Shown in pieces: positions 11,481 through 12,970 of a DNA stretch of 24,625 bases. The notes beneath the pieces are model-generated. The model worked only from the letters and a program-made list of their open reading frames with translations, was not told the DNA's origin and did not search any database. The stretch is from a virus (lineage: Duplodnaviria > Heunggongvirae > Uroviricota > Caudoviricetes), in the IMG/VR virus record IMGVR_UViG_2534681649_000014; one strand, 5' to 3'. Position 1 is the stretch's first letter, and each line of letters starts with the position of its first letter. Position numbers and translations under genes: made by a program.

Positions 11481-12749
11481 TCACTCGCCATTACCCCGAT
11501 TGATCTTCGCATAGTCAAACGGCGTAATCCCCTTCTCCCGGTTCGCATCCAGAAAATCAGCCCACCACTGCAACATCAGCTTGCGCTCATCCAGATGTTC
11601 CGCTTTATGGATATACGCCGCCCTCACCGAATTGCGTTCCATATGGCTCATCTGCCTTTCCACCGCATCCTTCGACCATAACCCTGACTCAATCAATGAG
11701 CTACAGGCCATAGTGCGGAAGCCGTGGCCGCAAACCTCAACCTTGGTGTCATAGCCCATCACCCGCAATGCACTGTTCACCGTGTTTTCACTCATGGGCT
11801 TACTCGGATCGTGATCGCCAATAAAAATCAGCTCATGTTCGCCACAGAACTGTTTTATCTGCTTCAGGATCGCTAGCGCCTGCTTTGAAAGCGGCACCAG
11901 ATGAGGTGTACGCATCTTTGCTCCTCGCTGAGAATGTTTCACACCGGGAATAGGTTCTCGCTCAGGCGGGATGGTCCACATTGACGTTTCAAAATCGATT
12001 TCTGACCAGCGAGCAAAACGCAGCTCACTGGATCGAATAAAAATAAGCAGGGTAAGTTCGGTTGCCCAGCGGGTTAGTGGCCTGCCGGTGTATTCATCGA
12101 TTTTCTGGAGTAATTCCGGGATACGCTTTAACTCCAGCGCCGGACGATGCTGTCGATTACTGGAAGCTACCGCCCCCGCCATCTCTTGCGCCGGATTGTA
12201 ATCAATTAACCCGCTTTGCACTGCATAACGCATGATGGCCGTGGTGCGCTGTTGAAGGCGGGAAGCCACTTCAAGACGTCCGGATTTCTCCACGGCTTTA
12301 ATAGGAATTAACAGATCGCGGGTGCCCAGTTCAGCAATATTGTGGGAACCAATTGCCGGGAAGATATTGTCCTCCAGGCTCTTTTTTACACGATTAGCAT
12401 GCTCTTCCGACCATTTTTGGTTGGTTACGAGCCACTCTCTGGCAACCTTCTCGAAAGTAATAATCTCTTTCGCCTGCTCTTCTTTCACAGCACGCTTATG
12501 CTCACGAGGATCGATACCAGCAGCTACCAGCTTTCTGGCCTCTTCCCTTTTCTTCCGCGCATCCGCCAGCGAAACATCCGGGTAAACGCCGAACGCCATC
12601 AAATGTTGTTTACCGCCAAAACGGAAACGAAATCGCCAATACTTTGAACCGCCAGGTTTTACAAGTAAGGACATGCCGTCGCCGTCAACAAGTGAATACT
12701 CTTTCTCCTCAGGTTTCGCAGAGCGAACTTTAGTATCCGTTAGGGCCAT
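11481..12749 (-). CDS. int: P4-family tyrosine integrase (island integrase)
   Basis: 422 aa from the MALTDTKVRSAKP… start (the ORF-track start at 12827 is probably an upstream extension). An AGGAAG RBS precedes it. P4/CP4-57-type N-terminus and C-terminal catalytic region (…CGHGFRTMACS…VRAAYIH…). Lies directly downstream of a tRNA-Leu 3-prime remnant. Confidence 0.9.
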   Translation of the reverse strand: MALTDTKVRSAKPEEKEYSLVDGDGMSLLVKPGGSKYWRFRFRFGGKQHLMAFGVYPDVSLADARKKREEARKLVAAGIDPREHKRAVKEEQAKEIITFEKVAREWLVTNQKWSEEHANRVKKSLEDNIFPAIGSHNIAELGTRDLLIPIKAVEKSGRLEVASRLQQRTTAIMRYAVQSGLIDYNPAQEMAGAVASSNRQHRPALELKRIPELLQKIDEYTGRPLTRWATELTLLIFIRSSELRFARWSEIDFETSMWTIPPEREPIPGVKHSQRGAKMRTPHLVPLSKQALAILKQIKQFCGEHELIFIGDHDPSKPMSENTVNSALRVMGYDTKVEVCGHGFRTMACSSLIESGLWSKDAVERQMSHMERNSVRAAYIHKAEHLDERKLMLQWWADFLDANREKGITPFDYAKINRGNGE

Positions 12750-12949
12750 AATGGTCTTCCTTCCATTGGTATCTCGTGAGTATACAAGCAATATCGAATC
12801 GGCAAATATACTCATTAGTATACTCACAAGCCTGTTGATGTGGGTTGAGTCAGGTTGACTTCAGTTGAGGGGAAAAGCTGGAAAAGCCTTGTGTAGCGCG
12901 GATTTCAGGCATAAAAAAAGACCTCAGTTGAGGTCTATTTACATACTTT

Positions 12950-12970
12950 TGGTGCGAAGGCCGGACTCAA
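12950..12970 (-). other. tRNA-Leu (leuX-like) 3-prime end remnant, a putative att direct repeat
   Basis: The minus strand reads …TTTGAGTCCGGCCTTCGCACCA, which matches the 3-prime acceptor/T-arm end of tRNA-Leu(CAA) leuX as I recall it (…GTTCGAGTCCGGCCTTCGGCACCA) with a 1-nt deletion and 1 mismatch. No D-arm or anticodon arm is present upstream, so this is a partial copy and not a tRNA gene. Confidence 0.55.

Follow-up and report, generated by a model that had tools for sequence, protein, structure and literature searches.

We find that the window, that is, the whole 24,625-nt stretch of DNA analysed here, is with a probability of roughly 0.9 a tandem array of two integrase-bearing elements at the tRNA gene leuX, built up by serial site-specific integration with a resident island in place first and a P4-like satellite added later. 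It represents ordinary tandem accretion at a known hotspot, an arrangement of a kind that is well documented. Tandem accretion was reportedly described by Pavlovic et al. in 2004. It is also treated in PMC4891358; leuX itself is a recognised integration hotspot (PMC4927057), tandem P4-like elements have been noted (PMC8628076), and the Islander collection of 3919 islands includes 125 tandem arrays (PMC4383910). In Islander arrays, every member has its own integrase and its own tRNA fragment in the same orientation, and all members share one target tRNA gene (PMC4383910, PMC4891358). The window does not differ from these arrays in kind. Each of its two members has its own full-length integrase gene, here called int-A and int-B; a single tDNA fragment and no full tDNA lie inside the window, this fragment being the distal one of the P4-like element (12950-12968), and the far end of the int-A island falls outside.

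Both integrase genes are on the minus strand. int-A (11481-12749) belongs to the older, distal island and encodes an intact P4-family tyrosine integrase of 422 aa; int-B (23360-24625; 421 aa) belongs to the P4-like element and is proximal to the tRNA gene. The two proteins each contain the three Pfam domains Arm-DNA-bind_3, Phage_int_M and Phage_integrase and share 57% identity, bearing out an earlier sequence-only reading of this DNA, which had taken 11481-12749 for a second, distinct P4-family integrase, related but not identical to the one encoded by int-B. Identity to P4 Int is 57% for int-A and 96% for int-B, and int-A shares ~80% identity with the translation of the K-12 intB pseudogene. 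The RSSELR, HGFRT and RAAYIH motifs are kept in both proteins in a pairwise alignment, and both, holding the motifs of the catalytic Arg, His-x-x-Arg and Tyr, are predicted integrases.

int-A heads an island that extends leftward through a SIR2 remnant, IS1, hsdS, hsdM and hsdR to an IS3-family element and a fragment of an IS66 transposase. The sequence-only reading had already named the type I R-M operon, SIR2 remnant and IS elements, and Pfam and PADLOC confirmed them. The R-M operon (2849-9042, plus strand) consists of hsdR (2849-6265; Pfam ResIII, HSDR_N and EcoEI_R_C), hsdM (6329-7963; N6_Mtase and HsdM_N) and hsdS (7960-9042; Methylase_S) and matches PADLOC REase_I at 5e-274; the same operon also follows int-A at locus L056 and in E. 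coli EC16. On the minus strand, a SIR2_2 defence gene with PDC-S25/ThsA-like hits in PADLOC (9167-11117) is broken by a 768-bp IS1 with an IS1 transposase domain (9936-10703), which separates a C-terminal part (9167-9949, minus; aa 275-529) from an N-terminal part (10677-11117, minus; aa 1-129). The two ORFs flanking IS1 are the ends of one SIR2_2 gene: both match the intact 529-aa SIR2_2 protein of L056 at 100% identity, and the alignment breakpoints show that ~434 bp (aa 130-274) have been deleted at IS1. With its IS1, IS3-family and IS66 insertions and its split SIR2 gene, the int-A island is decayed.

The satellite to the right of the junction retains all P4 core genes. Positions 4078-11624 of P4 are colinear with window positions 12950-20494 at 97.9% identity, starting exactly at the junction core and running through cos. 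The alpha-side attP arm (12969-13506, plus strand, by alignment to P4) includes two arm-type Int repeats (13022-13033 and 13034-13045) that match annotated P4 arm repeats exactly, as well as two 120-bp repeats with TGTTCACC motifs (~13162-13281 and ~13343-13462) that align to P4 crr; another arm-type Int repeat, within int-B (24332-24343), also matches the P4 arm repeats. The satellite core (13507-20520) begins with features on the minus strand, namely the alpha primase (13507-15840; Pfam primase domains), DUF5375 (15855-16175), ORF151 (16311-16766), the epsilon (Derepression) ORF (16759-17331; Pfam), the C4/CI immunity RNA (17291-17378; Rfam C4, 74.9 bits), isrK (17486-17563; Rfam) and AlpA/Vis (17635-17901; Pfam Phage_AlpA), and continues on the plus strand with sid (18435-19187; assigned by colinearity with P4 at 97.9%), delta (19184-19684; Pfam Ogr_Delta) and psu (19758-20330; Pfam Psu), followed by cos (~20495-20513). 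All 7/7 components of the P4-like core set as defined in PMC8628076 (int, psu, delta, sid, alpA, epsilon and alpha) are thus present in P4 order, together with the P4 immunity RNA, the crr/ori repeats and the cos site. The cohesive end differs from that of P4 at 3/19 positions (GGCGTGGCGGGGAGAGCAT in the window versus GGCGAGGCGGGGAAAGCAC), and this divergent cos may match another P2-like helper or may be impaired for packaging. Between cos and int, a variable cargo cassette (20728-23305, plus strand) stands in place of the P4 gop/beta/cII region. Two of its three ORFs resemble the candidate defence pair PDC-M18A/B in PADLOC (PDC-M18A-like, 20728-21807; PDC-M18B-like, 21811-22344), and the third (22274-23305) had no match in PADLOC; its counterpart in related loci has no recorded Pfam hit. 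The cos-int interval occupied by this cargo is a known P4 defence hotspot (PMC9122126).

The two elements meet at TGGTGCGAAGGCCGGACTC (12950-12968), which lacks one C but otherwise equals the reverse complement of the final 20 nt of E. coli leuX (TGGTGCCGAAGGCCGGACTC). A partial tRNA-Leu 3′ end had been proposed at 12950-12970 on the minus strand; the match to leuX stands, but it ends at 12968 and lacks this C, so that the proposed comparison of the repeat with the tRNA 3′ end gives 19/20 matched positions and a 1-nt deletion rather than 20-nt identity. The core lies on the minus strand, the leuX strand in relatives, and can be aligned to the 20 bp annotated as the attP core of phage P4 (X51522 4078-4097). 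Its 13-mer GAAGGCCGGACTC has one occurrence in the window, where 0.07 would be expected by chance with ≤1 mismatch allowed. Because the difference is an indel, a search with 25 nt of the leuX 3′ end and ≤3 substitutions allowed found no match anywhere in the window. Judged by these alignments, 12950-12968 is the predicted attR (distal end) of the P4-like element and at the same time the tRNA-side end of the int-A island; a second core copy marking the far end of the int-A island was not found within the window. Viewed in the same orientation, K-12 leuX ends in TGGTGCCGAAGGCCGGACTC, followed by the tRNA body, and the 50 nt immediately left of the core in the window (12900-12949) are identical to the K-12 sequence 3′ of leuX. 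The same 50 nt recur unchanged at L005 and L056, two loci with int-A right beside leuX. This leuX-type downstream sequence carries an intrinsic terminator hairpin on the minus strand (GACCTC-AGTT-GAGGTC plus a T run) and had gone unmentioned in the sequence-only reading. Copies of the terminator (GACCTCAGTTGAGGTC…) from Escherichia, Buttiauxella, Yersinia, Pectobacterium, Rahnella and Serratia differ very little, and because of this near-identity across genera the sequence probably belongs to the int-side end of mobile islands and not to the native chromosome.

ARAGORN detected no tRNA gene in the 24,625-nt window, and a tRNA-Leu gene had been predicted just to its right, adjacent to int-B. 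This gene is present in near-identical genomes. In a protein look-up, many public assemblies proved to encode exactly the int-B protein, and we compared six such loci, the P4-like half of which matches the window at 99.92-99.98% (one locus has an IS3-family insertion within the matched region). In 6/6, a tRNA-Leu(CAA) gene with an intact core lies 151-163 nt past the int-B start, and the neighbours of leuX are ahr, yjgR, lptFG, pepA and valS. The arrangement as a whole is already present in public genomes: CP026731.1 matches window positions 1480-22749 in one piece at 99.967%, and CP000036.1, which we take to be Shigella boydii Sb227, matches the window at 99.97-99.99%. E. coli EC16 has a similar tandem at 94-96% identity with leuX annotated, and none of the complete E. 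coli genomes covers ≥80% of the window.

Each element also exists without the other. Strains without the P4-like element, a comparison that the sequence-only reading had proposed, have int-A directly at an intact leuX. At L056, where int-A is identical at the protein level (100% aa) and the DNA of int-A and its upstream region is 99.65% identical to the window, the order is leuX, int-A, an intact SIR2 gene and then the R-M operon as in the window. At least 80% of int-A and its upstream region is carried by 337 complete E. coli genomes, and most of the best int-A hits in E. coli run into an annotated tRNA-Leu. The int-A islands of L005 (bR_120_Kylling) and L006 (YA-1) are separated by 1 SNP over 14,469 bp and their right flanks by none over 1,286 bp, and L006 alone has an extra 11.7-kb P4-like element between leuX and the int-A island. 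Conversely, at L003 a P4-like element 98.5% identical to that of the window lies at leuX before a K-12-type intB/KpLE2 island, and at L002 a P4-like element of the same kind lies before a region without an integrase.

These observations agree with the earlier proposals that both elements integrated serially into one tRNA gene, supported by the match of core and terminator to leuX and by the separate occurrence of the elements, and that the P4-like element was inserted between the tRNA gene and an older island, supported by the population evidence and the decay of that island. In the sequence of events that we propose, the int-A island with its intB-like integrase, type I R-M system and SIR2 gene would have occupied leuX first and supplied the terminator now at 12900-12949. 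The attP core of the P4-like satellite would then have recombined with the core at the leuX 3′ end. This insertion would have put int-B beside the tRNA gene and the alpha/crr end beside the resident island. Of the two resulting core copies, the intact one would have remained in leuX, just outside the window, and the other would mark the junction (12950-12968). We infer both the arrival order and the catalysis of the event by Int. Homologous recombination, rather than integration in this lineage, could also have brought in the array, or the P4-like element together with its flanking sequences; such a block import would leave the nature of the array unchanged.

A related alternative, which we regard as possible although the odds are clearly against it, is that the satellite and the R-M island arrived together as a single composite, either excised at the outermost att sites or transferred as a large fragment through homologous recombination. 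Composite islands are able to move in one piece (PMC4891358), the entire arrangement is common to several assemblies at ~99.9%, and the tandem of EC16 is similar; however, a composite would still need an earlier serial integration somewhere, each part is found separately with other partners, and the distal end of the R-M island falls outside the window. Concerning the order of arrival, position alone is no proof because a newcomer can use the distal att site of a resident. If the P4-like element had been at leuX first and the int-A island had later entered the attR of the satellite, the junction would look identical, and integration into the attR of a resident prophage has been shown experimentally for Sp10 and Rac (PMC2669165). 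Against this reverse order, the int-A island is the decayed partner (split SIR2, several IS) and the P4-like element, which shares 97.9% identity with P4, is intact, the near-isogenic L005 and L006 differ by the P4-like element, which is thus the variable part, and int-A islands without a P4-like element are widespread at leuX. For these reasons, arrival of the island first and of the P4-like element later is the likely order, and the reverse is quite improbable. That the 19-nt match is due to chance or is a decayed relic without att function, the adjacency of the integrases being coincidental, is refuted, the imperfect repeat and the lack of a tRNA gene in the window notwithstanding, by the leuX terminator flanking the core, by the position of the match exactly at the start of P4 colinearity, by the low chance expectation for the 13-mer and by the recurrence of the junction in 275 E. 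coli genomes and many genera.

The less ordinary detail of the array is its recurrent 19-nt core. The P4 reference attP core is the intact 20-mer, and a 20-bp core at the leuX 3′ end has been described as the P4 attachment site (PMC6177240). The distal repeat that is 1 nt short is nevertheless the usual E. coli form and not a private mutation: the K-12-type terminator flank is joined to the 19-nt core in 275/5426 complete E. coli genomes, and the intact 20-nt core is joined to a P4-type flank in 7 complete E. coli genomes only. The 19-nt core also occurs in 37 IMG/VR contigs with many different left and right flanks. In every IMG/VR contig with both ends, the short copy is the distal one and the copy on the tRNA side is intact; of the contigs in which a non-G base comes after the core, 29 show the 19-nt form and 1 the intact form. 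Among GTDB species representatives, the 19-nt core was found at ≥120 loci, almost all in Enterobacterales, and in ≥110 Enterobacterales species representatives, in genera ranging from Escherichia to Yersinia, Proteus, Photorhabdus and Pectobacterium; the deletion is in a tRNA context in 3 of the 120 GTDB matches listed. Loci with a 19-nt core include the window, L001, L002, L006, L008-L044 and L060-L179, and at L067 and L152 the core lies beside canonical P4 int-side flanks.

The sequence-only reading had interpreted the distal att repeat as the old tRNA 3′ end. The core is an att repeat, but it is probably not literally the tRNA end. A displaced fragment that once functioned as a tRNA 3′ end should be intact, and because the deleted form recurs everywhere, the core probably derives mostly from the P4-like element's own attP. 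In the usual picture, an element replaces the 3′ part of the tRNA gene from the T-loop onward. Because the deletion is found beside resident terminators, beside P4 int-side flanks and in the pair of loci that differ by 1 SNP, the simplest reading is that it is element-borne, and the sequences suggest that it resides in attP and that exchange takes place within TGGTGC, in the stretch from the CCA end to the missing C. We tend, by a narrow balance, to the broader view that leuX-targeting Enterobacterales elements carry a 19-bp attP core (TGGTGC-GAAGGCCGGACTC), that the tRNA copy is always intact and that exchange occurs in the terminal GCACCA; an element-borne 19-bp core combined with an intact tRNA copy would place the exchange within the terminal 6 bp of leuX. 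If the 19-bp reading holds, the published 20-bp identity would describe laboratory P4, an exception to its family. In the literature searched, we found neither a mapping of the P4 crossover nor a mention of this deletion.

Two other origins of the deletion were considered. Private or recurrent mutation of a displaced tRNA end after integration was rejected as the main explanation because the deletion has dozens of unrelated flanks, occurs with P4 int-side flanks and is seen in the 1-SNP pair. A chromosome-borne deletion hidden behind successive elements finds partial support in 12 E. coli genomes where the deleted form has a tRNA context, but it would need many independent origins. In 3/12 of these genomes (702/18, BS-04 and O111:H21 15A), the deletion lies within annotated 84-nt tRNA-Leu(CAA) genes. 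There is no P4-like element at the locus of either 702/18 (L045) or BS-04 (L046), and deletions of this type could reflect cured lysogens with a damaged leuX or assembly errors. No tRNA is annotated at the match in the other 9/12, and the one such locus inspected (L047) is a displaced fragment behind another element. These exceptions in a tRNA context fit a rare deletion between 13-bp repeats, or an overlap region spanning the site. Separately, L117 (Pantoea eucrina) has the one-base deletion inside an annotated 84-nt tRNA-Leu(CAA) gene.

A search of PLSDB for a free P4-like attP returned only a mis-assigned 1.2-Mb record. Among IMG/VR contigs, L036 and L039 were rejected as free attP because they are tandem junctions with another integrase adjoining, and L016 is a candidate in which no integrase was detected past the core. 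At L015 (2780-2843) and L043, the 19-nt core is joined to a left flank without a terminator or an integrase (…GGAATTTAGTAACT), and the P4-like element there has ~99% protein identity to that of the window.

Comparison with known systems places the window close to P4 at leuX beside K-12 intB/KpLE2 (PR-Y), which has the same attachment site with a 20-bp core at the leuX 3′ end. The gene order of P4 (int...psu-delta-sid...alpha-crr-att) is that of the window, at 97.9% identity, whereas gop/beta/cII are replaced by the PDC-M18-like cargo and the distal core lacks one C. The K-12 locus, which had been named for comparison, has leuX, a terminator identical to that of the window and then intB, so that a related integrase follows past the terminator as in the window; L003 shows the window's P4-like element before just such an island. 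In contrast to K-12, the resident int-A is intact, ~80% identical to IntB, and heads an R-M/SIR2 island instead of KpLE2. Islands of the PAI II type at leuX share with the window the target tRNA gene, a P4-family integrase and mosaic cargo (PMC4927057, PMC4891358), but the cargo of the window consists of defence genes (type I R-M, SIR2) rather than virulence genes. PAI II of strain 536, a leuX island of pathogenic E. coli, has 18-bp direct repeats, and this repeat may stop at the same missing C.

For annotation, the value of these results is that the P4-like satellite can be taken to run from 12950 to leuX, with an older defence island to its left; beyond delimiting two elements with a shared attachment site at a classical hotspot, the array itself has little significance. 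The recurrent 19-nt core could be of use to the mapping of island boundaries and to the study of tyrosine integrases. If the elements themselves carry the short core, boundary finders that rely on perfect tRNA fragments would mis-call the ends of such elements, and the crossover site of P4-type integrases would be narrowed down to the terminal 6 bp of the tRNA gene.

We also observed a third type of element at leuX, inserted ~31 nt into the gene (L002 17895-18070 and L047 14009-14180). It carries a site-specific integrase, a capsid protein and an HNH endonuclease and is PICI-like, and its presence gives arrays of three elements. At L047, the displaced leuX fragment has the same one-base deletion as the core of the window.
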